A stretch of DNA of 64,000 bases, taken from Dehalococcoidales bacterium. GTDB taxonomy: Bacteria; Chloroflexota; Dehalococcoidia; Dehalococcoidales; RBG-16-60-22. The stretch is from NCBI GenBank assembly GCA_034414775.1, contig DAOULX010000042.1, forward strand, positions 3,590 to 67,589, given 5' to 3'. Shown piece after piece: positions 22,896-53,589 of this stretch. Every line of letters begins with the position of its first letter. The first letter of the stretch is position 1. Below the pieces are notes generated by a model. It was not told the origin of the DNA. It ran no database searches and saw only the letters and a list, made by a program, of their open reading frames with translations. Both the position numbers and the translations under genes were made by a program.

Positions 22896-25800
22896 TTGAA
22901 TATGACAAACCCGGAGGTTGACAAAGATATGGCGTTAACCGGCAAGGTAATAATCGATACAGGGGAAATCGATGCGGTGATTCTTGATATGGATGGTGTC
23001 ATCACCCAGACCGCTGACATCCATGCCGCTGCCTGGAAAGAGCTTTTCGACGAGTACCTGAAAACCCGGGCGGACCGTTCCGGGGAGAAGTACCGGCCGT
23101 TCGAAATCGATCCCGATTATTTCCAGTACGTTGACGGGAAACCCCGTGATGACGGCGTGAAAAGCTTCCTGGAATCCCGCGGCATGTCTATCCCGCTGGG
23201 GGGAAAAGCTGATTCTGAAGACCAGGAGACTGTCCGGGGGTTGGGTAGCCGAAAAAACCGGTATTTTCTCGAGCAACTGAGGCAGGAGGGAGCCACTGCT
23301 TTCCAGTCTTCGGTGGATTTTGTAAAAGAGCTCAAAGCTCTCGGCATTTACGTGGCGGTAATATCGGCCAGCCGGAACGCCGAGGAGGTATTACGGTCTG
23401 CCGGGGTACTCGACCTGTTTGACGTCAAGGTTGACGGCGTTGACGCCGGTGAACTCAGGTTAAAGGGTAAGCCCAATCCGGCTATATTCCTGGAGGCCGC
23501 CAGGCGGCTGAATGTCCGGCCGGACCGGGCGGCCGTGGTCGAAGATGCCATAGCCGGTGTCCAGGCTGGCCGAAGGGGTAACTTCAAGCTTGTCATTGGA
23601 GTCGACCGTACCGGGCAGGAGGAAAACCTCCGGGAAAATGGCGCCGATGTAGTCGTGGCGGACCTGTCCTGGCTTGGTATCAAACAACCGACCCGCCCGA
23701 AGTCATTCGGCCGCCCGCTGAACAGCCTTCCATCTGCCCTGGAACGGAGAGAAGAAATTTTCGCCCGGCTGAGTGAAAAGAGTCCCGCAATTTTCCTTGA
23801 CTTCGATGGTACGCTGGCACCAAGAGTTAAAGCCCCGGCCGAGGTGGTTCTTTCCGGGAAGACCCGGCAGGTCATCAAACACTTGGGCAGACACTATTCG
23901 GTTGCCGTTGTCAGCGGACGTGATCTGGATGACATTCGTAAACTGGTCGATATCAATGACATCGCCTACGCGGGTGGTCATGGAATAGACATTTCCGGCC
24001 CGGGTAACGCCTTCCGGAGAGAGGAACGCGGTAAAGAGTTCCTGCCGGCACTCACCCGCGCCGAGAAAGAATTACGCGGGGCACTCAAACGTATCAAGGG
24101 GATAAAGATTGAACGTAAACACTTCAGCGTTTCCGTTGATTATTGCCGGGTCAATGAGGCTGACCTGGGTACATTCAAGGAGAGGCTTGACGGGGTGGCC
24201 TCAAATAATCCAAGGTTGAAAAAGACCGCCGGTGAAATGTTGTTTGAGCTGACGCCCAAAATCGATTGGAACAAGGGCAAGGCTGTCTTAGCCCTGATGG
24301 ACGTATTATATGCGGACAGCAGTAAGATTACGCCTCTTTATATTGGCGAGGATACCGCCGATGAAAAGGCTTTCCGCGCCATGGGGGAACGGGGTATCGG
24401 CATCGCCGTTGGTAAGGGGCGCCGCCGGACCCTGGCGCATTACCGGCTGCACGATCCGGATGAGGTCAGGGAGTTTCTGGCAGGACTGGGGGCGCTGGCG
24501 GAAAAGAAGGTCTCTCGAGGCATCTGGTCGCTTGTTTTCGATGGTTTCGTTCCCGAGGAAGAAGGGTTGAGAGAGGCCCTGTGCACGCTGGGTAACGGCT
24601 ATTTCGCCACCCGTGGCGCTGCTCCCGAGTCTAAGGCAGACGCGGTTCACTATCCAGGCACCTATGTCGCGGGATGCTTTAACCGGCTGACCAGCAAGAT
24701 AGCTGGCAAGAAAATCGAGAATGAAAGCATGGTGAACCTCCCGAACTGGCTGCCGCTGTCGCTGCGTTTCAACGACGGCGCCTGGTTCGATGTTGAGAAG
24801 GTCCAGGTGCTGGAATACGAGCAGGAGCTCGACCTGAGACGGGGCGTCCTGAACCGGCGGATACGCTTTGCCGATGAGCAAGGCCGCCGGACACGCCTGC
24901 TGCAACGCCGTTTTGTCAGCATGGCCGATCCTCATCTGGCAGGGATAGAGACCACCATCGTCGCGGAAAACTGGTCGGGGCAGTTATCGGTCAGATCGGC
25001 GCTTGACGGGACGGTAACCAACGACGGCGTGGCCCGCTACCGGCAACTGGATTGTCAGCATCTAGTACCGCTGGAATGCTCCCGCATCAATAACGAGACG
25101 ATATTACTGCAAGTGGAGACATATCATTCGCACATCCGGATTGCCGAAGCGGCACGAACGAGATTGTTCCTTGACGCCACCCAGCTCACTCTGGAACCCG
25201 CGACTATAGAAGACAAGGGCTTTATCGCCCAGGAGTTCAGCATCCCTGTAAAGACGGGGGGGCAGATAAGCGTTGAAAAGATAATATCTTTATATACGTC
25301 TCGGGATTCGGCTATTTCGGAGAGTGGTGAAGCCGCCCGGGAATCCGTGGCACGTGCCCCGGGCTTTGAGGGGCTTCTGGAACGCCACGTGATGAGCTGG
25401 GCTAACCTCTGGAACCGGAGCCGTATCGCCATCGAAAACGGCGAGCGTGTGGCCATGATCCTGCACCTGCATATCTTTCACTTATTGCAGACGGTTTCGC
25501 CCAATAGCATCGGTCTTGACGTGGGTGTACCGCCGAGGGGCCTCCACGGCGAGGCTTATCGCGGCCATATCTTCTGGGATGAGCTGTTTATATTTCCATT
25601 TTTAAACCTGAGCATTCCGGATATCACCCGCTCGCTGCTGTTGTACCGTTACCGGCGCCTGCCGGAAGCACGCTGGGCGGCCGCCCGGGCCGGGTTCCGG
25701 GGGGCGTTGTACCCGTGGCAGAGCGGCAGCGACGGACGGGAGGAGAGCCAGACACTCCATCTGAATCCCCGCTCGGGGCGATGGCTACCCGACAACTCAC

Positions 25801-26942
25801 ACCTGCAAAGGCATATCAATATCGCTATCGCCTATAATATCTGGCTTTACTACCAGGTGACCGGCGATGTCGATTTTCTCTCTTACTATGGAGTGGAGAT
25901 GCTCGTCGAAATCGGGCGGTTCTTCGCCAGCATCGCCACATACAATCGCACGCTGGACCGTTACGAGATCCGCCGGGTCATGGGTCCTGACGAATACCAC
26001 GATTCTTATCCGAACGCCAGCGAACCCGGCATCGACAATAACGCCTATACCAATGTAATGACGGTCTGGCTGCTCTGCCGGATCCTGGAAGCACTTGATA
26101 TAATCCCCCCGGATAGGAAGGAGTCACTCCAGGATAAACTGGATCTTAGACGCCAGGAGCTGGAGCATTGGGATGACATCAGCCGTAAAATGCGGATCGT
26201 CTTCCATGACGGCGGTATCATAAGCCAGTTTGAGGGCTATGATGCTCTTGAGGAGTTCGATTGGAAAGGCTACGAAAAGAAGTACGGTAAAATCGAGCGC
26301 CTCGACCGTATCCTCGAGGCGGAAGACGATACTCCCAACCGGTACAAAGTCTCTAAGCAGGCCGATGTGCTAATGTTGTTTTACCTGCTTTCATCCGATG
26401 AACTGCGGGAGCTGTTCGGCCGGCTTAACTATCCCTTTGAATATGAGACCATTCCCAGGAACATCGATTATTACCTTCATCGTACTTCCCATGGCTCTAC
26501 TTTGAGCCGATTGGTGCATGCCTGGGTACTGGCCCGCTCCAAACGTGAACTTTCCTGGCACCTTTTCAAGGAGGCCCTGGAGAGCGATGTTTCCGATATT
26601 CAGGGCGGTACGACGATGGAGGGTATTCATCTCGGTGCCATGGCGGGGACGGTAGACCTGGTGCAGCGCTGTTTCACCGGGATCGAAACCCGCCGGGACA
26701 AGCTGCAGTTAAACCCGGTGCTACCAAACGAGCTCAAAGACATCCAGTTCGATATTGTGTTCCGTCGGCAGCATCTCAACCTTCAATTTACCCATAACCG
26801 GCTGATTATCAAGGGACAGCCGGGTGAAGTGTCACCGGTCAGGATTGGCTTCGGAAACCTGGAAACCGATCTCAAACCTGGTGAGACCATGGAATTCAAG
26901 CTTCCGGATCCCTTGGCGAACCCTGATGATCTTACCAGGTAG
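22896..26942 (+). CDS. Tri-domain fusion: beta-phosphoglucomutase-like HAD + trehalose-phosphatase-like HAD + GH65 glycoside phosphorylase
   Basis: Domain 1 has DAVILDMDGVIT...KGKPNP...VEDAIAGVQAG. Domain 2 has AIFLDFDGTLAP...VSGRD...GEDTADE. The C-terminal roughly 780 aa have a GH65 pattern (HIFWDELFIFPF, GPDEYH, QADVLML). The architecture is that of mycobacterial OtsB1-like proteins. Confidence 0.85.
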   Translation: MNMTNPEVDKDMALTGKVIIDTGEIDAVILDMDGVITQTADIHAAAWKELFDEYLKTRADRSGEKYRPFEIDPDYFQYVDGKPRDDGVKSFLESRGMSIPLGGKADSEDQETVRGLGSRKNRYFLEQLRQEGATAFQSSVDFVKELKALGIYVAVISASRNAEEVLRSAGVLDLFDVKVDGVDAGELRLKGKPNPAIFLEAARRLNVRPDRAAVVEDAIAGVQAGRRGNFKLVIGVDRTGQEENLRENGADVVVADLSWLGIKQPTRPKSFGRPLNSLPSALERREEIFARLSEKSPAIFLDFDGTLAPRVKAPAEVVLSGKTRQVIKHLGRHYSVAVVSGRDLDDIRKLVDINDIAYAGGHGIDISGPGNAFRREERGKEFLPALTRAEKELRGALKRIKGIKIERKHFSVSVDYCRVNEADLGTFKERLDGVASNNPRLKKTAGEMLFELTPKIDWNKGKAVLALMDVLYADSSKITPLYIGEDTADEKAFRAMGERGIGIAVGKGRRRTLAHYRLHDPDEVREFLAGLGALAEKKVSRGIWSLVFDGFVPEEEGLREALCTLGNGYFATRGAAPESKADAVHYPGTYVAGCFNRLTSKIAGKKIENESMVNLPNWLPLSLRFNDGAWFDVEKVQVLEYEQELDLRRGVLNRRIRFADEQGRRTRLLQRRFVSMADPHLAGIETTIVAENWSGQLSVRSALDGTVTNDGVARYRQLDCQHLVPLECSRINNETILLQVETYHSHIRIAEAARTRLFLDATQLTLEPATIEDKGFIAQEFSIPVKTGGQISVEKIISLYTSRDSAISESGEAARESVARAPGFEGLLERHVMSWANLWNRSRIAIENGERVAMILHLHIFHLLQTVSPNSIGLDVGVPPRGLHGEAYRGHIFWDELFIFPFLNLSIPDITRSLLLYRYRRLPEARWAAARAGFRGALYPWQSGSDGREESQTLHLNPRSGRWLPDNSHLQRHINIAIAYNIWLYYQVTGDVDFLSYYGVEMLVEIGRFFASIATYNRTLDRYEIRRVMGPDEYHDSYPNASEPGIDNNAYTNVMTVWLLCRILEALDIIPPDRKESLQDKLDLRRQELEHWDDISRKMRIVFHDGGIISQFEGYDALEEFDWKGYEKKYGKIERLDRILEAEDDTPNRYKVSKQADVLMLFYLLSSDELRELFGRLNYPFEYETIPRNIDYYLHRTSHGSTLSRLVHAWVLARSKRELSWHLFKEALESDVSDIQGGTTMEGIHLGAMAGTVDLVQRCFTGIETRRDKLQLNPVLPNELKDIQFDIVFRRQHLNLQFTHNRLIIKGQPGEVSPVRIGFGNLETDLKPGETMEFKLPDPLANPDDLTR

Positions 26943-38123: not shown

Positions 38124-38702
38124 ATGTCATTGTTACCAGACTTTGGTATTGGAGTTTGGAACGTCTGGTTGTTTATGATTATTTATCCTCTCCAATGGTT
38201 GGCGGTCGTCGTATTCCCTAAAGGAATTGGTGAAAGAGCCAGTCATGCCCCGGAAATCATCCGGGACCGCCGGGACAAAATCATGGCTATACTCACCCAG
38301 GGACTCTGGGTCGGCGCTACGCTCTACTCCATATTCGTGCCGCTGCGAACGGGCGAGCCCTGGTTGTGGGTGGGGCTGGCGCTGTTCGCCGCCGGTCTGG
38401 TGGTGTTAATTCTAGCGACAGTAGCCGTATCCAGCACGCCTCAAGGAATGCCCTTTTCGACCGGTATCTACCGCTTTTCACGCCACCCCATGTACCTTTC
38501 CATGTTCCTTGTCTATGCGGCGGTCAGTGTCGCTGCCGCTTCCTGGCTGTTTTTCGTTATCACCATTGCCACCTTCTTTCTCCAGCAGTACCAGGCAAGG
38601 AAAGAAGAAGCCCAATGCTGTGATATATTCGGCCCGGCCTATCGGGAGTATATGGGCAGGACGCCCATGTGGATAGGTGTACCGAAGCTACAGCGACAAT
38701 AG
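38124..38702 (+). CDS. Membrane methyltransferase, ICMT/PEMT-like family
   Basis: Polytopic membrane protein with YRFSRHPMYLSMFLVY, the motif typical of isoprenylcysteine carboxyl methyltransferase-like enzymes. Confidence 0.7.
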   Translation: MSLLPDFGIGVWNVWLFMIIYPLQWLAVVVFPKGIGERASHAPEIIRDRRDKIMAILTQGLWVGATLYSIFVPLRTGEPWLWVGLALFAAGLVVLILATVAVSSTPQGMPFSTGIYRFSRHPMYLSMFLVYAAVSVAAASWLFFVITIATFFLQQYQARKEEAQCCDIFGPAYREYMGRTPMWIGVPKLQRQ

Positions 38703-38793: not shown

Positions 38794-39969
38794 TTACAAT
38801 AGTGAGGGGATGTCTTTGGAGACGTCATCCAGCGCCTTGAGCTTGTCCTCCGTCTCCTCCTGGCGTTTCTTGAACTCGGGGATAAGGTCGGTCGAGCGGA
38901 GATAGTAGTCGCGTACTTTCTCAACGTCGCTGAGCTCGGAGAGAAGTACGGTAACATCTACCAGGCCCCTTTCCCTGGGGTAGTCACCGTTGCGGATGAT
39001 GGCCTCCGGCGCGATGTCCCTCATATAATCGCCGATCTCTTTGACCATGTCCATGTTCATTTCCTTGGCCGGGCCGGACACCAGGTATAGCGCCCGGCGC
39101 GAATCGGCGGGATTGCATTTCAGGGAAAGCTCGCTGATGGCCTCATCCATAGCCTGGATGCCCTTCTGGATCTCGGTGCCCTTCTTGCGGAAATCGCTCT
39201 TCCACTCGGTCGGCCACTTGAACAGGGGAGCCTGGGTCTTACCGTAGCCGATGACTGTCCAGCCGACCACGGTCTGGATAATGTCCCCGGCGTCGAGCAG
39301 CTTGGCACCGATGAACTTGGACTTCTTTTCCTCGCCGGCGCAGAGCATATTATAGAACGGCTCGGCAATCATGCCATTTATTTTGGATAGATTGGTCTGG
39401 ATGGAAGAGTCCTTTCTTACGTAGCGCTGGTTATCAACGAGGAAGACGGCATCGGCGACCGAGTAGCAGGACTTGAGGCAGGTGGCCACGTTGAAGACGG
39501 TCCTTTCCTCGGTAGTCTCTTCGTGCTCGAAAGGCAAGACAATCAGGTTCCAAATCGGTTTATCGATGTAGCGTTCCTTCAGGTGCTGCGAGACGATGGA
39601 GATAGCGCCGGATCCGGTGCCTCCTGCCGAACCGGCGATAAGGAGGAAGGCGTCCGTTTCGAAGAAGTGCTTGGTTGTCCTGATCGCGTCTACGATTTTA
39701 TCGGAATCTTCCTTGGCTATCTCGGCACCGAGCTCGTTGATTTTCCCGACGCCGTGGCCGCCGGTCTTGCGGCTACCGATAAGGATCCGATGGCGGTGGT
39801 CGTTACCTATGCTGGACAGGCCGCTCAGATCAGCGGCATCAGTATTGACAGCGAAACAGCCTGTGACGATGGTCATACGACGGCGGCTACGGGCTTTGGA
39901 ATTAAGCCGAGCAAATTCATCGGCAATTCTGCCACCGCACTGCCCCAAGCCAACAACGACTAATTTCAT
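38794..39969 (-). CDS. Tubulin/FtsZ-superfamily GTPase, CetZ-like (paralog A)
   Basis: 391 aa. The T1 loop is MKLVVVGLGQCGGRIADEF, the T4 tubulin signature is SAGGTGSGA, and a T7-like loop is KLLDAGDII. An FtsZ-type C-terminal domain pattern is present (RALYLVSGPAKEMNMDMVKEIG...VDVTVLLSEL). The tail ends KDIPSLL. The RBS is AGGGGG. Confidence 0.85.
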   Translation of the reverse strand: MKLVVVGLGQCGGRIADEFARLNSKARSRRRMTIVTGCFAVNTDAADLSGLSSIGNDHRHRILIGSRKTGGHGVGKINELGAEIAKEDSDKIVDAIRTTKHFFETDAFLLIAGSAGGTGSGAISIVSQHLKERYIDKPIWNLIVLPFEHEETTEERTVFNVATCLKSCYSVADAVFLVDNQRYVRKDSSIQTNLSKINGMIAEPFYNMLCAGEEKKSKFIGAKLLDAGDIIQTVVGWTVIGYGKTQAPLFKWPTEWKSDFRKKGTEIQKGIQAMDEAISELSLKCNPADSRRALYLVSGPAKEMNMDMVKEIGDYMRDIAPEAIIRNGDYPRERGLVDVTVLLSELSDVEKVRDYYLRSTDLIPEFKKRQEETEDKLKALDDVSKDIPSLL

Positions 39970-39997: not shown

Positions 39998-40027
39998 ATT
40001 TTAAGCATAATGTCAGCGCAATGTCAA
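39998..40027 (-). promoter_or_regulatory. Sigma70-type promoter of CetZ-like gene A
   Basis: The minus strand reads TTGACA (40027-40022), an 18-nt spacer, then TAAAAT (40003-39998), about 28 nt upstream of the ATG. Confidence 0.5.
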
Positions 40028-40121: not shown

Positions 40122-40150
40122 TTGAAAAAGTGCTACCCGAATAATATAAT
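40122..40150 (+). promoter_or_regulatory. Sigma70-type promoter of the 818-aa repeat protein gene
   Basis: TTGAAA-N17-TATAAT is followed by the RBS GGGGGGTGG and the ATG at 40183. It is divergent from the CetZ-like A promoter within an AT-rich 213-bp spacer. Confidence 0.5.
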
Positions 40151-40182: not shown

Positions 40183-42639
40183 ATGTCTCCGAATCTGAGG
40201 GAAGAAGTCGAGGGGAATATCACAGATTTCGAACGGGCGGTAGCTAAGGCTGAGGAACTCAGCCGGGCTGCCCGAGAGGCTGCCGGTAAATCGACGAAGA
40301 GCGCCATGGAAGCCGCTCAGCGGGCGGAGGAGGTGGGGCTGAAGGCCAAGAAGGCGGCGGAAGATGCCGCCAGGGCGGCCCAGGATGCGATAGCCCGGGC
40401 GGAAAAAGTCAGCCGGGAGGCCAAAGAGGCCGCTGACGCAGCGATGAAAGCCGCTAATGAAGCCATCGCCAAGTCGGAGGAGATCGCCAAGCGGCCGCAG
40501 GAAACGGCCCAATCCATGGCCAAAGCCTTCGAGGAAGCTATCGCACGGGCGGAGAAGATTGGTGGGGAAGCGATGCGGGCGGCGGAATCGGCATTGATGC
40601 TTTCCCAGGAGAGGCTCCAGCGCATCGATGAAATCAGCCGCGAAGCCAAGAAAATAGCTGATACAGCCGAAGAAACAACCCAGGAGGCTATTTCCACAGC
40701 AGAATCAGCCGTTAGCGCCGCCAGAGAGGCCACCGAAGAGTCAATCAGAGCAACCAAGGAAGCTACCAAACAGGCGGAAAAAATGGCCCGAGAGGCCAGG
40801 GAGGCCGCCGAGGCAACCACCAAGGTGTCCAAAGACGTGGTAAGCCGGACGGAGAAGACCAGTCTGTCCACCCGGGAAGCCGCCGAAGTAGCCGCCCGGG
40901 CCGCTGAGGAAGTAGCCACGCGGGCGGAGACTATCAGCAAGGTAGCCCGTGAGGTCGCCGAGGCGTCACAGCGTTCATCCCAGGAAACGATGAACCGTGT
41001 TGAAATGGTGAGTCGGGAGGCCAAACTGGCCAACGACGCTTCTCAGAAGACCGCCCAGGAAGCACTCAAGCGGGCGGAAGACGTTACCAGGGAGACTAGA
41101 GCCGCTACGGATATGGCGGCCAAGATTGCCAAGGAGGCTTCGGCAGCTTCTGTGAAGGCCTCACAGGAAGCGATGGCCAAGGCTGAACTTCTGAGCCAGG
41201 AGGCCGGTACCAAAGCTGCTGCAGCGGCTACCGAATTACAGGAGGCGGTCGCCAGGGCGGAGCAGGTATCACGGGATACCATTGATGCTACCGAAACGGC
41301 CGTGAGGAATGTGAAGGAAGCCCAAGCCCTTACGGAGAAACAGAGTCAGACCGCCAGGGAGGAGGCCGAGGCGGCGTCGCTGTCCGCCCGGGAAGCCGCC
41401 GAAATGGCCGCGCAGTCTGCCCGGGAAACCGCCGAGGCAGCCGCACAATCAGCCAAGGAGGCCGCCCGGGCAGCCGCCGAGAATGCCCGGCAGGCCGCCG
41501 AAGCTGCGGCACAGTCGGCGCGAGAGGCCGCCGATGCGTCAGCCCAACAGGCCAGCGAGGATGTGGAAGCCGCTTCACGTAGCGCCTGGGAAGCGACCGA
41601 GGCGGCAGCTGTAGCCGTGCGGGGTGCAGTCGATGCTGCTGTACAGAAGATACTAGAGGCTTCTCAGAAGACGACTGAAGAATCCGCCGCGGCTGTAACC
41701 AGAGTCGAAGAAGTTAGCGGTGAAGCCCGGCAGAAGTCGGAGGCCGCTTCTGAAGAGTTCCGCCAGGCGGTGGCGCGGATGGAAGAAATAAATAATGCAG
41801 CCGGGGTGTCCGTCGAGGAATCGGCCAGGAGCGCCCGTGAAGCGGTCGAAAAGATCGAGAAAGAGACCCAGGAAGCGGTGGCCAGGGCCGAGGAGATTGG
41901 CCAGTCCGCCAAACAGACAGCCGAGGAATCGACAAGAGTGATGCGGGAAGCCATCGACGCCGCCATTGCGACAGTGCAGGAGACGTCCCAGGTATCCCAA
42001 CAGGAAATCCAGGAGGCGATCGCCAGAGCTGAGGAAATCAGCCGGGAGACAAAGGAAGCGGCCGAGGCAGCGGTCCAGGCCGCCCGGGAAGTGACGGACG
42101 GGCTGGTCAAAGCCGCCACGGAATCCGCGGAGAGGACGGTCAAGGCGGTCAAGGAAGCCACCGAAGCAGCCGCCAAGGTTGCCCGAGAAGCTGCCGGGGT
42201 TTCCATTTCCGCTTTCAGGGAGGCGATAAGCCGGGCGGAGACAAGCGGGCAGCTGGCCAGGCAGACAGCGGACGAGTCCTTCCGCCGCTACGAAGAGTCC
42301 CTGGGTAAGGTCCGGCAAGACGAAACCGGAGAAGGCGAAAGTCAGGAAGAAACCCCGGTCAGCGCCGAAGATGCTGTTGAAGATGAGATGGCCGCTACGC
42401 TGGAGACAGATACCGAGTTTGAGACCGAGATGGGGAGCGCTCAGGATTTGGAGGAAGAAGAGCTAGGCTCGGACATAAAGCTGGAAAAGGAAGACGTTAA
42501 AAACAACGACAAGAACGGTTCAAGGGGAGAACCCAAGGGGAAAATGGAAGCTCGTCTTGAATCCCTGGCCCGGATGTATGAGGCCAAGAGAAACCAGCAA
42601 TCCGGCAAGGGAGATGAGAATAACGATAACGGCGAATGA
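40183..42639 (+). CDS. 818-aa Ala/Glu-rich all-helical repeat protein (25-residue and 11-residue repeats) with an acidic disordered tail
   Basis: A long ORF with RBS and promoter. It has no TM segment and no signal peptide. About 20 copies of a motif resembling A-[IV]-A-R-A-E-x-[IV]-S-R-E-A-K-x-A-A are present. The conserved Glu falls at residues 24, 49, 74, 99, 124, (D149), 174, 199, 224, 249, 274 and 299. A pure 11-mer block covers about residues 392-480. The C-terminal roughly 130 aa are Glu/Asp-rich. Confidence 0.85.
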   Translation: MSPNLREEVEGNITDFERAVAKAEELSRAAREAAGKSTKSAMEAAQRAEEVGLKAKKAAEDAARAAQDAIARAEKVSREAKEAADAAMKAANEAIAKSEEIAKRPQETAQSMAKAFEEAIARAEKIGGEAMRAAESALMLSQERLQRIDEISREAKKIADTAEETTQEAISTAESAVSAAREATEESIRATKEATKQAEKMAREAREAAEATTKVSKDVVSRTEKTSLSTREAAEVAARAAEEVATRAETISKVAREVAEASQRSSQETMNRVEMVSREAKLANDASQKTAQEALKRAEDVTRETRAATDMAAKIAKEASAASVKASQEAMAKAELLSQEAGTKAAAAATELQEAVARAEQVSRDTIDATETAVRNVKEAQALTEKQSQTAREEAEAASLSAREAAEMAAQSARETAEAAAQSAKEAARAAAENARQAAEAAAQSAREAADASAQQASEDVEAASRSAWEATEAAAVAVRGAVDAAVQKILEASQKTTEESAAAVTRVEEVSGEARQKSEAASEEFRQAVARMEEINNAAGVSVEESARSAREAVEKIEKETQEAVARAEEIGQSAKQTAEESTRVMREAIDAAIATVQETSQVSQQEIQEAIARAEEISRETKEAAEAAVQAAREVTDGLVKAATESAERTVKAVKEATEAAAKVAREAAGVSISAFREAISRAETSGQLARQTADESFRRYEESLGKVRQDETGEGESQEETPVSAEDAVEDEMAATLETDTEFETEMGSAQDLEEEELGSDIKLEKEDVKNNDKNGSRGEPKGKMEARLESLARMYEAKRNQQSGKGDENNDNGE

Positions 42640-42690: not shown

Positions 42691-42719
42691 TTGACTTTTA
42701 AATATTAGGGCAATATACT
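42691..42719 (+). promoter_or_regulatory. Sigma70-type promoter of the 162-aa repeat protein gene
   Basis: TTGACT-N17-TATACT lies about 90 nt upstream of the GTG start at 42811. Confidence 0.5.
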
Positions 42720-42810
42720 GGGCACAAAGTAGCAACCGGACTACTGGAAACGCCCCTTTATTGTTGCCGGTGATTAATGGAGAAATCAGTTTCATATAAG
42801 GAGGTGCCAG

Positions 42811-43299
42811 GTGGCCAACCCGAAGGAACGAACCAAGAAGACTACAGCAGAACTTGAACCCGAACCATCTGTAGAAGTGGCACCGGAGGAACAGCCCAAG
42901 AGTCCTCTTGATGAGGTCATGAGCCAGGCCGAAAAGGCCTATGCCGCTTATATGGACGCCGAGCGGCAGGTGGCCCGGGCCTATCATGAGAACGAGGTGC
43001 AGGTGGCCAAGGCTTACAAGCGGGCGGAGGAGCAGGCCGCCCGGGCTTATGAAGCGGCCGTTGCGAAGGCATTGAAAGACCGTGACGAGGCGATATCGCG
43101 GGCGGCTAAAAGCCGTGAGGACATGATGAGGCGGGCTGAAGAGGCTTACCAGGCGGCCGTCGATTCAGCCTGCGCCAATAGTGAAACGGCCATTGCCGAG
43201 GCTGTTAAAGTTCGTGATGAAAGCGTTGAGAAAGCCTGGCAGGTACGCGACCAGACCATTGAACAGGCCTGGCAGATTTACTCCAAGATAGCCAGGTAG
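42811..43299 (+). CDS. 162-aa hendecad-repeat helical protein
   Basis: The start is GTG, preceded by AAGGAGG. After a Pro/Glu-rich N-terminus, an aromatic residue recurs every 11th residue (Y47, Y58, Y69, Y80, Y113, then W143 and W154). Confidence 0.75.
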   Translation: MANPKERTKKTTAELEPEPSVEVAPEEQPKSPLDEVMSQAEKAYAAYMDAERQVARAYHENEVQVAKAYKRAEEQAARAYEAAVAKALKDRDEAISRAAKSREDMMRRAEEAYQAAVDSACANSETAIAEAVKVRDESVEKAWQVRDQTIEQAWQIYSKIAR

Positions 43300-43415: not shown

Positions 43416-44591
43416 TTAAAGCAGCGAGGGTATATCCTTGATGGTAATATCAATCCCTCGCTGCGTACTTATTGCACCCTCCTGGCGTTTCTTCAATTCG
43501 CTCATGAGATTGATAGCCTTGGTAAAGTAGTTCCTAACCTTCTCCACATCGCTGAGTTCGGATAGTATCAGGGTTATATCCACAGCGCCTTTTTCACGGG
43601 GGTAATCGCCGCTCCTGATGATAGCTTCTGGGGACATATTCTTGATGTGGGCTCCCATTTCCTTGATAAGGTCCACGTTGATTTCCTTGGCCGGGGCGGA
43701 AACCAGGTAGAGAGCCCTCTTCGAGTCCAGCGGATTACACCTGATGGACAGGCCGCTGATGGCGGAATCGAGGGCCTGGATGCCCTTCTGTGTTTCCGTA
43801 GCTTTGTTCCTGAAATGGCGGTTGCGGCCGAAGAGGTTTTTAAACGCGGAAGTGTGGGACCGGCCATATCCCAGAGTTGTCCAGCCTACCAGTGTCTGGA
43901 TGATATCCCCCGCATCTAGTATCTTGGCGCCGATGTGGCGGGACTTTATCTCCTCGCCGGCGCAGAGCAGATCGTAGAAGGGTTGGACGATGGTAGTGTT
44001 AATGCGGTGGAGGTTGCCCATGATATGCCGGTCTTTCATGACATAGCGCTGGTTATCGATGAGGAAGACGGCATCGGCAACCAGGTAGCTGGACTTGAGG
44101 CAGGTAGCCACGTTGTAAACCGTCCTTTCCTCGGTGGCCTCTTCATGTTCAAAGGGCAGGATGATGAGGTCGTAAACAGGCTTATCGACATAGCGTTCTT
44201 TTATCTGTTGGGTCATAACGGAGATGGCGCCGGAACCGGTGCCGCCGGCTGCCCCGGCAATAAGCAGGAAGGCATCGGTTTCCTGAAAGCCCTTCGAGCT
44301 TCTGATGGTCTCGATGATTTTATCGGCGTCTTCCCGGGCGACTTCGGCGCCGAGCTCGTTGATTTTACCGACGCCATGGCCCTGGGTCTTCTTATTACCG
44401 ATGAGGATACGGGTGTCATAGCGAGGTTTTATGGTCTTCAGGCCATGGAGGTCGGCTAAATCGGTATTGACGGCGAAAGCGCCGGTGATTATATTCAGCC
44501 CGCGGGTACTACGTGCCCGACTATTAAGCCGGGCGAACTCGTCAGCAATCCTGCCACCGCATTGCCCCAGGCCGATGACGATTAGTTTCAT
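43416..44591 (-). CDS. Tubulin/FtsZ-superfamily GTPase, CetZ-like (paralog B)
   Basis: 391 aa, collinear with paralog A without gaps and roughly two-thirds identical by eye. The same motifs are present (GLGQCGGRIADEF, AAGGTGSGA, KILDAGDII), and it ends in the identical KDIPSLL. Confidence 0.85.
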   Translation of the reverse strand: MKLIVIGLGQCGGRIADEFARLNSRARSTRGLNIITGAFAVNTDLADLHGLKTIKPRYDTRILIGNKKTQGHGVGKINELGAEVAREDADKIIETIRSSKGFQETDAFLLIAGAAGGTGSGAISVMTQQIKERYVDKPVYDLIILPFEHEEATEERTVYNVATCLKSSYLVADAVFLIDNQRYVMKDRHIMGNLHRINTTIVQPFYDLLCAGEEIKSRHIGAKILDAGDIIQTLVGWTTLGYGRSHTSAFKNLFGRNRHFRNKATETQKGIQALDSAISGLSIRCNPLDSKRALYLVSAPAKEINVDLIKEMGAHIKNMSPEAIIRSGDYPREKGAVDITLILSELSDVEKVRNYFTKAINLMSELKKRQEGAISTQRGIDITIKDIPSLL

Positions 44592-44619: not shown

Positions 44620-44648
44620 ATTGTACGCAATAAATAATGGGATGTCAA
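44620..44648 (-). promoter_or_regulatory. Sigma70-type promoter of CetZ-like gene B
   Basis: The minus strand reads TTGACA (44648-44643), a 17-nt spacer, then TACAAT (44625-44620), about 28 nt upstream of the ATG at 44591. Confidence 0.55.
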
Positions 44649-50073: not shown

Positions 50074-51201
50074 TTAAGTGAAGTGACGTTGCTTGGCCGA
50101 CTCGCTCGGTGTTTCACTGGATGCCACGTGCCGTCGGTGACTGAAAAGGGGACGGCGCAGGAAGGAAGGCATATCCAGCTCGTCCTCTGTCTTCATGCCT
50201 TTCAGGATCTTGGTGAGCTCGTCATCCTCGGTCTCCTGGCCCATGCCCAGCTTGGCATGGAATCCGGTGGTGATGAGGGTAATCCTCACTTCGTTTTCCA
50301 TGGACGGGTCATTGGCGACGCCGAAGATGATGTTGGCATCCGGATCGACAGCCTGTTTGATGACATCGGCCGCCTGGTTGACCTCGAACAGAGAGAGATT
50401 GCTGCCGCCGACGACGTTAAACAGGACAGCCTTGGATCCTTCGATGGACACATCGAGGAGCGGACTGGCCAAGGCTTCCTTGGCAGCATCGGTGGCCCGG
50501 TTCTGTCCGGATCCCTTACCGATTGACATCCAGGCCGGGCCGGCATCCTTCATGATGGCCTTGACATCGGCGAAGTCGAGGTTGATCATACCGGGGGTGG
50601 TAATCACCTCGGCGATGGCCTGGACGCCGTGTCGCAGGACATCATCGGCGAGCTTAAAGGCGCTGTCGACACCGGTCTTGTGGTCACAGAGAGTCAGCAG
50701 GCGGTCGTTGGGGATGATAATCAGGGTATCGACCTTATCGATCAGGGTAGTGATGCCTTCTTCAGCCGTCTCCATGCGGTGAGCACCCTCGAAAGTGAAG
50801 GGTTTGGTAACTACGGCGATGGTCAGGGCACCGCTGTGCTTGGAAATCTCCGCTAATATCGGGATAGCACCGGTACCGGTACCGCCGCCCATACCCGCTG
50901 TGATAAACACCATGTCCGCACCGGAGAGGATCTCCTTCAGCTCATCGCGGTTTTCCTCGGCGGCCTTTTGCCCGATGCGATGGTCGCCGCCGGCGCCGAG
51001 TCCCTTGGTCAGCTTGGGGCCAAGCTGGACGCAAACCGGGGCTTCACAGATCGCCATAGCCTGGGCGTCCGTGTTCATGGCGATGAATTCTACCCCCTGG
51101 ATGTTTTCCCTGACCATACGTGTTACGGCATTGCTGCCACCACCACCCAGACCGACGACTTTTATCCTGGCTGGGTTGGTTACAAAACTTGTTCTAGCCA
51201 T
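50074..51201 (-). CDS. ftsZ: Cell division protein FtsZ (canonical)
   Basis: 375 aa with [18 protein letters not shown] and NLDFADV motifs and a C-terminal peptide LDMPSFLRR. Confidence 0.97.
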
Positions 51202-51245
51202 CTCCTCCTCCTTTCACTGATACCTTTTTATTTATTATTCTGTTT

Positions 51246-52448
51246 TCATACGAAGAACTTTTTAAGCTGGGCCGCGATGCGGTTGAATAGCCCCGGTTTC
51301 CAGTTCCTCCTACTCTGGTATTTGCTCCCCCAGAGCAGCAGACCGACACTGGTGGCGTAGGCCGGGTCACGGAGTGTGTCGGCGATACCATGGAGGTTAG
51401 CAGGGGCGCCAACCCTCACCGGGAGCTTGAGGATATCGCGCCCGAGGGCAGCCATGCCGGATAGATTGGCACTGCCACCGGTAAGCACCAGACCGGCGGG
51501 TACCAGTGCTTCGTAGTCCGAATTCGGCATTTCCAGGAGGATGAGCTTCAAGATTTCCTCGACCCTGGCCCGGATGATGTCGCAGAGGTCCTGATAGGAT
51601 ACGCCGTGGCCGTCTTTGGATATAGCCGGAGCCGTATCACTTTTGCTTTCATAAACAGGCATAACACTGCCGTACTTTTTCTTCATCTCTTCGGCAATCT
51701 CGAACGGCAGCCCCAGGCCGATAGCGACATCGCGGGTGAGCTGGTATCCGGCTACCGGTAGAATGGAGGTATGCCAGATGCTGCCTTCCCTGAAGACAGC
51801 AACGTCCGTGGTGCCACCACCGACATCAGCCATGATGACACCGACCTGCTTTTCGTCATCGGTGAGGATGGCCTCGCTGCTGGCCAGGGGCTCCAGGACA
51901 AGGTCTTCGATGTCTATCCCGATGCTCCGGATGCATTTGACCAGGTTCTGGATCGAGGTCACCGCCGCTGTGATAATATGGGTTTCCACGTCGAGTCGGA
52001 AGCCGTGCATGCCGACGGGATTTTTAACGCCCGTCTGACCGTCGACGGCATAGGCGCGGGGGATAACGTGAAGCAGTCTTCTATCAGTGGCGGTCTTCAC
52101 GCTCTGGGCGGAGGCCAGGACCCGTTTCAAGTCGTCCGGGCGTACGACGCGGTCGTTACGAGTGATAGCGACAACGCCGTGGTTGTTGATCGACGTAACG
52201 TGGCGGCCGGTAACGCCGACGTAGGCAGATTCCACTTTATAATTGCTGGCCTGCTCCGCCTTTTTAACCGAGTCCCTGATGGATTCCCTCGCTTCGTTGA
52301 TATTGACCACGAGCCCTTTGTGCAGCCCCCGGGAAGGAGAAACGCCCACGCCCAGGATGCGAGGGCCGCCGTCACTGACATCCGAAAGTATCGTACAAAT
52401 CTTGGTCGTGCCAACATCAACTGAAGCTACGACATTCTGTTTTTTCAT
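51246..52448 (-). CDS. ftsA: Cell division protein FtsA
   Basis: 400 aa with actin-fold motifs (VDVGTTK, DVGGGTTD). It lies immediately upstream of ftsZ and has a strong RBS, AAGGAGGG. Confidence 0.95.
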   Translation of the reverse strand: MKKQNVVASVDVGTTKICTILSDVSDGGPRILGVGVSPSRGLHKGLVVNINEARESIRDSVKKAEQASNYKVESAYVGVTGRHVTSINNHGVVAITRNDRVVRPDDLKRVLASAQSVKTATDRRLLHVIPRAYAVDGQTGVKNPVGMHGFRLDVETHIITAAVTSIQNLVKCIRSIGIDIEDLVLEPLASSEAILTDDEKQVGVIMADVGGGTTDVAVFREGSIWHTSILPVAGYQLTRDVAIGLGLPFEIAEEMKKKYGSVMPVYESKSDTAPAISKDGHGVSYQDLCDIIRARVEEILKLILLEMPNSDYEALVPAGLVLTGGSANLSGMAALGRDILKLPVRVGAPANLHGIADTLRDPAYATSVGLLLWGSKYQSRRNWKPGLFNRIAAQLKKFFV

Positions 52449-52536
52449 CTGCCCTCCTTAAATATCCGTGGTCTTTCGTACCATATTTCTTTCGGTTCTC
52501 ACATACAAGAACCTCCTTTATTGGTTTGCTTATGGT

Positions 52537-53589
52537 TCAAGCGGCCAATAATACCGTCTTGATCTTTTGTAACAGGGCTGGCCGACGCCATCCCCGATAC
52601 TCGGCGATGGTGAGGACCGGATGGTCTCGGGCGGCGTCGGGCGAAGAGTTGTTATTGATCACACGCTGCGCGGCCCTCATTTTGGCGCTGCGGCTGCGCA
52701 CGTTGAGCCCGATTTCGGCTCGGGTGGGGGTAATGACTTTCTTGTTGACCAGTTCCAGGCGTGGGGTATGGCCGCAGATACAGGCCGGCGTCCCCGGGGG
52801 GCAAATACAACCGCGGGACTCTGTCTGCATGAACTGCTTGACGATTCTGTCTTCGAGAGAGTGGTAGCTGATGACTACCAGCCGGCCAGCGTGGCCGAGG
52901 AGATCAACGGCCTGTCTCAGAGCGGCTTCCAGGTGTTCCAGTTCGTGGTTGACGGCGATGCGGAGCGCCTGGAAGGTTTTCGTGGCCGGGTGAATACGGC
53001 CGCTCCGTCCGATGGCCGTTTCAACCAGTGATGCCAGCTGGCGAGTTGTGGAAACGGGACGATTCTCCACGATAATCCGGGCAATTCTGCGACTGCGCTT
53101 TTCCTCGCCGTAGGTCTTGATGATATGGGCCAGCCGGGCTTCCGGTGTCGTGTTGACGATATCGGCGGCGGTGGTCTTTTGGGTGGGATTAAATCTCATG
53201 TCCAACGGGGCATCGGTCTGGAAGCTGAAACCGCGCCGGCTTCCGTTGAGCTGAAGGGAGGACAGTCCCAGATCGAAAAGGATGCCGTGTACGGGGAAAA
53301 AGTCATATTTAATACAAATGGATTGCAGATTGGCGAAATTATCATTGACCAGGAGGGCGGACTCCTTATAGCGCTGGAGTCTTTTCTTCGCCGCCTCGAT
53401 AGCGGCGGGGTCGGCGTCAATACCCAGAAGCTGACCCCCCGGAGAGCTGTGGTCGAGGATAGCCGCGGCGTGCCCGCCGGCACCGACGGTGCAATCGATA
53501 TAGCGGCCGCCAGGCTGTACAGCGAGGGCGCGAAGCGCCTCAGAGAGGAGGACCGGGGTGTGGGTGTGGGTTGATCTCTGGTTCACCAT
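52537..53589 (-). CDS. rsmH: 16S rRNA (cytosine1402-N4)-methyltransferase RsmH
   Basis: [15 protein letters not shown] and FDLGLSS motifs are present. The protein is about 40 aa longer at the C-terminus than typical RsmH. Confidence 0.92.

Follow-up and report, generated by a model that had tools for sequence, protein, structure and literature searches.

S162, a putative hendecad-rod protein conserved in the CetZ-like gene cassette of Dehalococcoidales

The CetZ-like cassette and the S162 gene

The window analyzed here, a stretch of 64,000 nucleotides from a Dehalococcoidales bacterium (contig DAOULX010000042.1), carries a gene for a 162-amino-acid (aa) protein, S162, that is encoded among genes of the tubulin superfamily. 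The cassette comprises, in order, CetZa (positions 38794 to 39969, minus strand), CC818 (40183 to 42639, plus strand), S162 (42811 to 43299, plus strand), and CetZb (43416 to 44591, minus strand, convergent with S162). CetZa and CetZb are 391-aa tubulin/FtsZ-superfamily GTPases in which both domains of the CetZ family, a family otherwise associated with archaeal cell-shape control, score above their Pfam cut-offs (Tubulin and CetZ_C, PF00091 and PF21011; 1.9e-31 and 8.7e-16 for CetZa, 7.3e-32 and 1.3e-17 for CetZb). The two paralogs are 66% identical, and their best relatives in the PDB are Haloferax volcanii CetZ2 (4B46; 5.7e-44 for CetZb) and then CetZ1 (4B45). Since the host is bacterial, we term them CetZ-like, following a phylogenetic survey that recorded such sequences in Chloroflexota-Dehalococcoidia (Santana-Molina et al. 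2023, PMC9871819).

An earlier note on this DNA, made by a model from the letters alone, had proposed a 162-aa reading frame with a GTG start, a near-consensus promoter, and an AAGGAGG ribosome binding site (RBS). The reading frame bears out the first proposal, and the identical gene is called on a contig of a metagenome-assembled genome (GCA_964393175.1). A consensus scan places a sigma-70-type promoter, TTGACT-N17-TATACT, at 42691 to 42719 of the plus strand (10 of 12 matches), and the RBS reads from the sequence at 42798 to 42804 of the same strand, 6 nucleotides (nt) 5′ of the GTG. Both signals are kept in orthologs. A promoter-like TTGA..-N16-18-TA...T was found in 57 of 60 intergenic regions upstream of S162 orthologs, 55 of these 57 having exact TTGACT and TATACT hexamers around a spacer whose sequence differs; AAGGAG(G) is retained in 58 of the 60 regions, and GTG is the commonest start codon. 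Synonymous sites among the orthologs are near saturation (median dS of 1.8), yet the protein is conserved; because of this near saturation and some misaligned pairs, no dN/dS ratio is given. Judged by these comparisons, S162 is a real gene under purifying selection.

Searches of S162 against Pfam, NCBIfam, PADLOC, and PHROG returned no family above threshold, and a profile search of the PDB found no sequence relative. Foldseek gave no meaningful match to the structural model, an outcome expected of a single helix. A defense-system or phage origin was considered and rejected, as there were no PADLOC matches and all PHROG matches were subthreshold. The size of the family depended on how it was sought: a word-indexed homolog search recovered just 6 fragments, while profile searching and locus scans revealed far more. 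Profile searching, carried out exhaustively against 1.84 billion cluster representatives, identified 165 relatives at an E value of ≤1e-3 and 86 at ≤1e-10, and scanning metagenomes with the S162 family brought in 80 further loci with 54 to 75% identity.

The earlier note had suggested that S162 probably serves the 818-aa protein and the CetZ-like pair as a small adaptor, an idea that absence of the gene from otherwise conserved CetZ-like loci would have counted against. Gene order supports the suggestion. A CetZ-like-anchored scan of species-representative genomes yielded 17 Dehalococcoidales loci, and all 16 CetZb-anchored genome loci that were long enough contained an S162 ortholog, 59 to 74% identical. 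Counting was also done from the S162 side, in loci with sufficient flanking DNA: CetZb was convergent downstream in 57 of 60, a CC818 homolog on the same strand preceded S162 in 55 of 56, and CetZa lay beyond the CC818 homolog in 28 of 28. This four-gene order is found at almost all of the ~95 orthologous loci. Linkage to CetZ-like genes also outlasts rearrangement in two divergent lineages. One of them (L145), in which the S162 relative is ~28% identical, has a CC-like gene, an S162-like gene, and two tandem CetZ-like genes whose products end in KDIPTLL and KDLPSLL; in the other (L146), a CetZ-like gene has an S162-like gene as its immediate upstream neighbor, both being on the same strand and without an intervening CC gene. 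On this synteny, S162 is a conserved component of the Dehalococcoidales CetZ-like cytoskeleton cassette.

Several more distant members of the family differ in context or architecture. S162-like genes near genes for 370- to 380-aa coiled-coil proteins with weak similarity to DivIVA or V-ATPase-G were seen at two loci (L060, 1452 to 2561, and L141, 5677 to 6828). The S162-like paralogs P0002, P0127, and P0134 carry a C-terminal extension of ~70 aa. Two weak profile matches, P0248 and P0254, consist of 15 to 20 tandem 11-residue repeats of the type KAYDEAVAPAx, with Pro in each and no Pfam match, and appear to form a separate aromatic hendecad repeat family.

The aromatic stripe and its 11-residue period

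S162 had been parsed in the earlier note into hendecads, or 11-residue units (Q53-V63, Q64-E74, and so on to Q152-R162), with Tyr at residues 47, 58, 69, 80, and 113, Trp at 143 and 154, and one phase shift of 3. The parse agrees with the sequence, and the listed aromatics are joined by two more, so that the full set is Tyr44, Tyr47, Tyr58, Tyr69, Tyr80, Tyr113, Tyr157, Trp143, and Trp154. When residues are written in rows of 11, with the first row beginning at residue 38, the phase shift is evident, as Tyr44, Trp143, and Trp154 occupy column 7 and the remaining Tyr residues occupy column 10. Columns 7 and 10 are only 65 degrees apart on an 11/3 helix and therefore belong to the same stripe; in this geometry, columns 2, 6, 10, 3, and 7 together make up a single straight stripe from 98 to 229 degrees.

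The order extends beyond the aromatics that were described earlier. Column 10 is never empty (Y47, Y58, Y69, Y80, R91, R102, Y113, S124, R135, R146, Y157), and most homologs have Tyr at position 124, a Ser in the window protein. Column 6 begins with A, V, and V and continues with eight consecutive Ala residues, and column 3 changes from Glu in the N-terminal half of the helix to Val, Ile, or Met in the C-terminal half. In shuffles of residues 38 to 162, none of 5,000 matched the aromatic Fourier power of S162 at 3.67 residues; the signal at a period of 11 was also significant (P = 0.006, 5,000 shuffles), and the same test gave no signal for aromatics at periods of 3.5, 3.6, or 7. Hydrophobicity follows the same geometry. 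The best hydrophobic period is 3.66, and the hydrophobic moment over 131 helical residues is 0.31 at 98.2 degrees per residue (coherent only from 98.2 to 98.4), dropping to 0.14 at 100 degrees and to 0.06 at heptad spacing.

Loss of the aromatic periodicity in homologs would have spoken against the earlier note's reading, but the periodicity is kept. Among 152 well-covered family members, aromatic power at 11/3 was significant (P ≤ 0.05 against each protein's own shuffles) in 98% overall and in 95% of those 39 whose identity to the window protein is <35%. The median hydrophobic period of these members is 3.66 (5 to 95% range, 3.64 to 3.67). In the same 152, column 6 is Ala in 72% and Val in 16%, and among orthologs it is an invariant Ala at 8 of its 11 positions. 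Column 10 is Tyr in 52%, Arg in 28%, and Phe in 8%, with Y, R, H, F, and C replacing one another at the same stripe positions, and the two Trp residues are retained in 130 (Trp143) and 137 (Trp154) of the 152. Columns 6 and 10 have the lowest entropy; the hydrophobic moment aims at column 10 (164 degrees) and the conservation moment falls between columns 6 and 10 (143 degrees). Column 11, which flanks the stripe, is mostly Asp or Glu.

Conservation also varies along the helix. In orthologs, residues 38 to 75 and 138 to 162 are near-invariant on all faces, while between residues 75 and 138 conservation is confined to the seam columns. One central hendecad, residues 96 to 106, is precisely missing from 37 of the 152 members, and at that site one member carries 7 extra residues. 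The only superperiod seen is one of 44 residues (6.6 nm).

A proposed hendecad rod and its alternatives

AlphaFold2, run on a single S162 chain with a 34-sequence alignment, predicts residues 1 to 31 (42811 to 42903, plus strand) to be disordered (predicted local distance difference test [pLDDT], 49 to 54) and residues 32 to 161 (42904 to 43293, plus strand) to form one unbroken helix (pLDDT, 97 to 98). At 0.15 nm per residue, the helix would be ~19.5 nm long. It contains 11 hendecads bearing the Ala, Tyr/Arg, and Trp seam. The Pro/Glu-rich composition that the earlier note assigned to a 37-aa N terminus is confirmed, but in the model the helix begins at residue 32, not 38. Within the tail, a basic motif, M-x-x-QKERTKK, is conserved, and the Pro/Glu-rich linker that follows it varies in length and sequence. 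The net charge is -4 for the helix and -6 for the whole protein, whose isoelectric point (pI) is 5.1; the mean hydrophobicity of the helix is 0.09.

Each repeat of a hendecad coiled coil has a core residue aimed directly at the axis of the bundle, and in two-stranded forms this residue has to be small, Ala above all, as is the case for FilP and Scy (PMC9858780). S162 has an apolar period of 3.66 over 131 unbroken helical residues, close to the ~3.67 of this class, and the Ala of column 6 would be the small axis-pointing residue of a two-stranded form. A near-invariant Ala column with large Tyr, Arg, and Phe neighbors and outer Trp, Ile, and Val is the make-up expected of a hendecad coiled-coil seam. 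The deletion of exactly one central hendecad, together with a variable middle and invariant ends, fits a rod with a length-quantized spacer and terminal docking sites. An S162-like helical module also occurs C-terminal to PAS domains in two other proteins, P0172 (which has a DUF4062 domain as well) and P0146, and such fusion is typical of a self-associating coiled-coil module.

The reading that we favor, tentatively and at somewhat short of an even chance, is that S162 is a straight hendecad coiled-coil linker rod that organizes CetZa/CetZb filaments, with the aromatic stripe as its seam. S162 would then be a rod-shaped accessory subunit of a Dehalococcoidales-specific CetZ-like cytoskeleton of the tubulin superfamily, built from a short basic N-terminal motif, a flexible acidic linker, and a 130-residue helix of 11 hendecads. 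The stripe would serve as the packing seam of a straight, non-supercoiled coiled coil, each repeat contributing an Ala core column, a Tyr/Arg/Phe neighbor, and outer columns of Ile/Val/Glu and Ala/Trp. On the model, the helix is most likely two-stranded. The assembly might be a homodimer, possibly antiparallel, with the Tyr/Glu-rich N-terminal half lying on the Trp/Arg/Ile-rich C-terminal half, or alternatively a heteromer with the near-hendecad C-terminal rod of CC818. The middle hendecads would act as the length-quantized spacer and the invariant end blocks (residues 32 to 75 and 138 to 162) as docking sites for CC818, CetZ filaments, or both, so that the rod and CC818 together could bridge or organize CetZa/CetZb filaments as small coiled-coil cross-linkers do for FtsZ. 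What the data show is the gene and its linkage, the predicted helix, and the periodicity and column composition with their conservation; oligomerization, orientation, binding partners, and the cross-linking role are all matters that we infer. Among the closest known systems are ZapB and ZapA, FtsZ cross-linkers which are likewise small, acidic, and nearly all-helical, work in a tubulin-superfamily polymer system, and bridge filaments, as is proposed here for S162. Unlike S162, ZapB is heptad based (a control sequence peaked at 3.50) and there is no homology between them; moreover, the putative partner of S162 is the CetZ-like pair and not the division FtsZ, which is encoded apart at 50074 to 51201.

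An antiparallel homodimer is attractive because the two halves of the seam differ. The N-terminal half has Glu in column 3 and Tyr in column 10, and the C-terminal half has Ile/Val in column 3 and Arg in column 10; in a parallel dimer kept in register, Glu would face Glu and Arg would face Arg. Geometry of the a-h′ and d-e′ type led us to propose antiparallel registers with residue sums of 197 or 200. Several observations weigh against the coiled-coil rod. The predicted helix is that of a single chain. A simple charge and volume score singled out no antiparallel register, and coevolution gave no stable one, its enrichment peaks shifting between sums of ~201 and ~222 and none being significant after multiple testing. 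Mutual information peaked at sums of ~219 to 223 with all sequences and at ~201 to 202 when deletion variants were left out. Invariant Glu51, Glu62, and Glu73 and four Arg residues lie inside the seam, which is unusual for a homomeric core and could mark a heterologous interface with a globular partner. S162-like genes at four loci (L141, L144, L060, and L061) have no adjacent CetZ gene, which indicates that the module is not obligatorily CetZ bound, and a few members have unrelated neighbors, as at L001 (537 to 1635), where a PemK/MazF-type toxin gene begins 4 nt downstream of an S162-like gene whose product has the C-terminal extension, placing the latter gene in an antitoxin-like position.

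The seam charges would be better suited to a heterologous interface, such as that of a single S162 helix whose stripe runs along a CetZa/CetZb protofilament or in a groove between protofilaments, where it might stabilize, measure, or sequester ~4 to 5 subunits while the disordered N terminus caps or regulates. This arrangement, which we consider unlikely, recalls tropomyosin and stathmin, the latter a protein in which a disordered N-terminal tail leads into a single very long helix. S162 shares the layout of stathmin and the association with a tubulin-family paralog pair with stathmin/Op18 and with the filamentous microtubule inner proteins. Tyr, Trp, and Arg, classic hot-spot residues of protein-protein interfaces, fill the stripe, where Y, R, H, F, and C interchange; acidic S162 is complementary to basic CetZb, and the tight CetZ-like linkage survives rearrangement. 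The spacing of the repeat fits poorly, however. The longitudinal subunit repeat of CetZ1 is 4.2 nm (bioRxiv 10.1101/2024.04.08.588506), which corresponds to ~28 helical residues, whereas the length unit of S162 is 11 residues (1.65 nm), with one 7-residue insertion, and its only superperiod is 44 residues (6.6 nm); neither unit matches the subunit spacing. The invariant Ala column is a textbook sign of helix-helix packing in hendecads and, like the 11-residue length units, sets S162 apart from stathmin and the inner proteins, to which it has no sequence similarity. No Pfam model of the stathmin family matched S162 at an E value of ≤1 or 37 family members at ≤0.05, and S162 has no sequence relative in the PDB and no sequence relation to any known microtubule-associated protein (MAP). 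Binding to CetZ is itself putative, and some homologs have no neighboring CetZ genes. The filament-groove helix that the earlier note had offered as one option thus keeps some points in its favor but is less parsimonious than a coiled coil, as the seam composition and the 11-residue length steps count against it. In its boldest form, which strikes us as quite improbable, S162 would be a prokaryotic MAP analogue that recognizes, through its ladder of Tyr, Arg, and Trp, the surface of a heteropolymer of CetZa and CetZb and, with CC818, sets filament spacing or curvature under the envelope of wall-less Dehalococcoidales. If true, this would mean that a bacterial tubulin-type shape cytoskeleton has dedicated lattice-binding proteins that arose independently of eukaryotic MAPs.

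S162 and CC818 might instead form an intermediate-filament-like scaffold of their own, in the manner of FilP/Scy or DivIVA, beside the CetZ filaments; the gene linkage would then reflect a shared cell-shape pathway rather than physical binding to CetZ. CC818-S162 is the tightest adjacency of the cassette (55 of 56), a CC-like and S162-like pair occurs with no CetZ gene alongside at L061, S162-like genes lie by DivIVA-like or V-ATPase-G-like coiled-coil genes at L060 and L141, and CC818 has a mixed heptad/hendecad period (3.56 to 3.65), like bacterial intermediate-filament-like proteins (PMC9858780). The long unbroken helices, 11-residue period, Ala-rich core, and cytoskeletal association are indeed those of FilP, Scy, and DivIVA-like rods, and the mixed period of CC818 is of this type as well. 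S162 differs from these in being far shorter (162 aa), in the regular Tyr/Arg/Trp ladder of its core, in its linkage to tubulin-superfamily genes, and in belonging to Chloroflexota, not Actinobacteria. It has neither homology to DivIVA nor a DivIVA-like N-terminal motif: Pfam gave no DivIVA match for S162 or for 37 family members, and the score of the window protein with the NCBIfam model DivIVA_Wag31 was 13 bits, the cut-off being 260. We considered and rejected homology of S162 to CC818, for which hhalign gave a probability of 2%; in Dehalococcoidales, both CetZ paralogs always bracket the pair, and L146 has an S162-like gene immediately in front of a CetZ-like gene and lacks a CC gene between the two. 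An independent scaffold therefore seems rather improbable to us. A role at the membrane, offered in the earlier note as one option in the form of an interfacial helix, is very unlikely. In this reading, an amphipathic 11/3 helix would tether or curve membrane under CetZ filaments, with Tyr and Trp, which favor membrane interfaces, at the lipid boundary. The period of 3.66 and the straight amphipathic stripe are those of lipid-bound 11-mer repeat proteins such as alpha-synuclein (whose sequence, used as a control, also peaked at 3.66), perilipin, exchangeable apolipoproteins, and group 3 late embryogenesis abundant proteins; the N-terminal KERTKK motif is basic, and three central 22-residue windows have a HeliQuest-type discriminant of ≥0.68. 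The discriminant is <0.68, however, in 7 of 10 windows and negative in six of those, and the helix itself argues against lipid binding: its net charge is negative and its hydrophobicity low, as given above, with a whole-protein pI of 5.1. The lipid binders have a positive or Lys-flanked, uninterrupted apolar face. That of S162 is chiefly Ala, has Arg at mid-stripe (28% of the central column), and is flanked by acidic or neutral columns with no Lys belt, and the terminal blocks of the helix are invariant on all faces, the polar ones included, which a lipid-facing helix would not need.

Full-text literature searching found no description of S162, of CC818, or of any accessory protein of these bacterial CetZ-like genes. 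The S162 family is new, its putative structural type, the hendecad coiled coil, is a known one, and the bacterial tubulin-superfamily system to which it belongs is unstudied; hendecad coiled coils as a class have been termed "largely unexplored" (PMC9858780). With CC818, it makes two candidate CetZ-filament accessory proteins, syntenic in almost every locus examined and neither named in the literature found. The model of a straight hendecad rod, seamed with Ala, Tyr, and Arg and invariant at both ends, is testable. If it is true, it would provide a handle on the organization of a tubulin-superfamily cytoskeleton in a bacterium and would add a natural, very regular aromatic-ladder hendecad to the coiled-coil class.

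Partner proteins and genomic surroundings

Each of the four cassette genes has a near-consensus promoter-like site in front of it. Those of the partner genes match at 11 of 12 positions and read TTGACA-N18-TAAAAT for CetZa (39998 to 40027, minus strand), TTGAAA-N17-TATAAT for CC818 (40122 to 40150, plus strand, from the window sequence only), and TTGACA-N17-TACAAT for CetZb (44620 to 44648, minus strand). The CetZ-like paralogs differ in charge: CetZa has a pI of ~6.4 (ortholog median, 6.6), and CetZb is basic, with a pI of ~9.05 (ortholog median, 8.6). CetZa orthologs are 86 to 95% identical. Charges within the cassette are complementary, with S162 at -6 and CC818 at -54 versus CetZb at +7.

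CetZa and CetZb both end in an invariant KDIPSLL (38794 to 38820 and 43416 to 43442), which is similar to the C-terminal peptide of FtsZ (D-I/M-P-x-F-L-R) and to LESLF, the hydrophobic tail with which archaeal CetZ1 ends and which is essential for rod formation (bioRxiv 10.1101/2024.04.08.588506). KDIPSLL is likely a docking peptide, for which FtsA, S162, and CC818 are candidate receptors. The flanking proteins resemble H. volcanii CetZ1 and CetZ2 in having Tubulin and CetZ_C domains and, in particular, CetZ1 in having a short conserved hydrophobic tail. They differ from archaeal CetZ in their host, a Dehalococcoidales bacterium rather than a euryarchaeon, in forming two tightly linked paralogs of differing charge, and in having two dedicated helical partner genes. 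The literature searched named no dedicated helical partner for archaeal CetZ, the comparison being one with the literature and not with archaeal loci.

CC818, an 818-aa protein with a pI of 4.7, consists of 24% Ala and 17% Glu and matched no family in Pfam or NCBIfam. A word-indexed homolog search came back empty, low-complexity words having saturated the candidates, and a single-sequence AlphaFold2 model consisted entirely of long helices at low confidence (pLDDT, 61); the model is used here solely to describe CC818 as all-helical. The apolar period is 3.56 in residues 1 to 310 and 3.63 to 3.65 in residues 530 to 704, near the 3.66 of S162. CC818 also has an acidic disordered linker and, beyond this, a conserved C-terminal helix (residues 785 to 806), K[MI]E[AS]RLESLARMYE. 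Residues 397 to 480 (41371 to 41622) form ~7 perfect Ala-rich hendecads of the SAREAAEAAAQ type. This insert is lineage variable, being missing or much shorter in most orthologs (gap fraction, 0.64 to 0.79), and looks like a recent repeat expansion.

The window is bacterial chromosome, with dnaX-ybaB-recR, recO, priA, tRNA synthetase genes, and rsmH-ftsA-ftsZ, and the proteins flanking S162 have close relatives labelled as Dehalococcoidales or Chloroflexota. The division cluster at 50074 to 53589 (minus strand) is cut down to rsmH/mraW, ftsA, and ftsZ, genes of the mur type, ftsW, and ftsI being absent from the spaces between these three, and its genuine FtsZ, with a C-terminal DMPSFLRR, is distinct from the CetZ-like pair. 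Dehalococcoidales are abundant subsurface bacteria whose cultured relatives are described as being without a peptidoglycan wall, and the reduced cluster fits a Dehalococcoidia host that has no peptidoglycan. Two further genes of the window lie on the plus strand. One, at 22896 to 26942, encodes a 1,348-aa fusion of HAD/beta-phosphoglucomutase-like, trehalose-phosphatase, and GH65 (trehalose/maltose phosphorylase) domains. The other, adjoining the cassette at 38124 to 38702, encodes a membrane methyltransferase of the PEMT/ICMT family, which is present as six tandem paralogs at one S162 locus (L067, 2196 to 5751) and as two to three at two others (L069 and L143).

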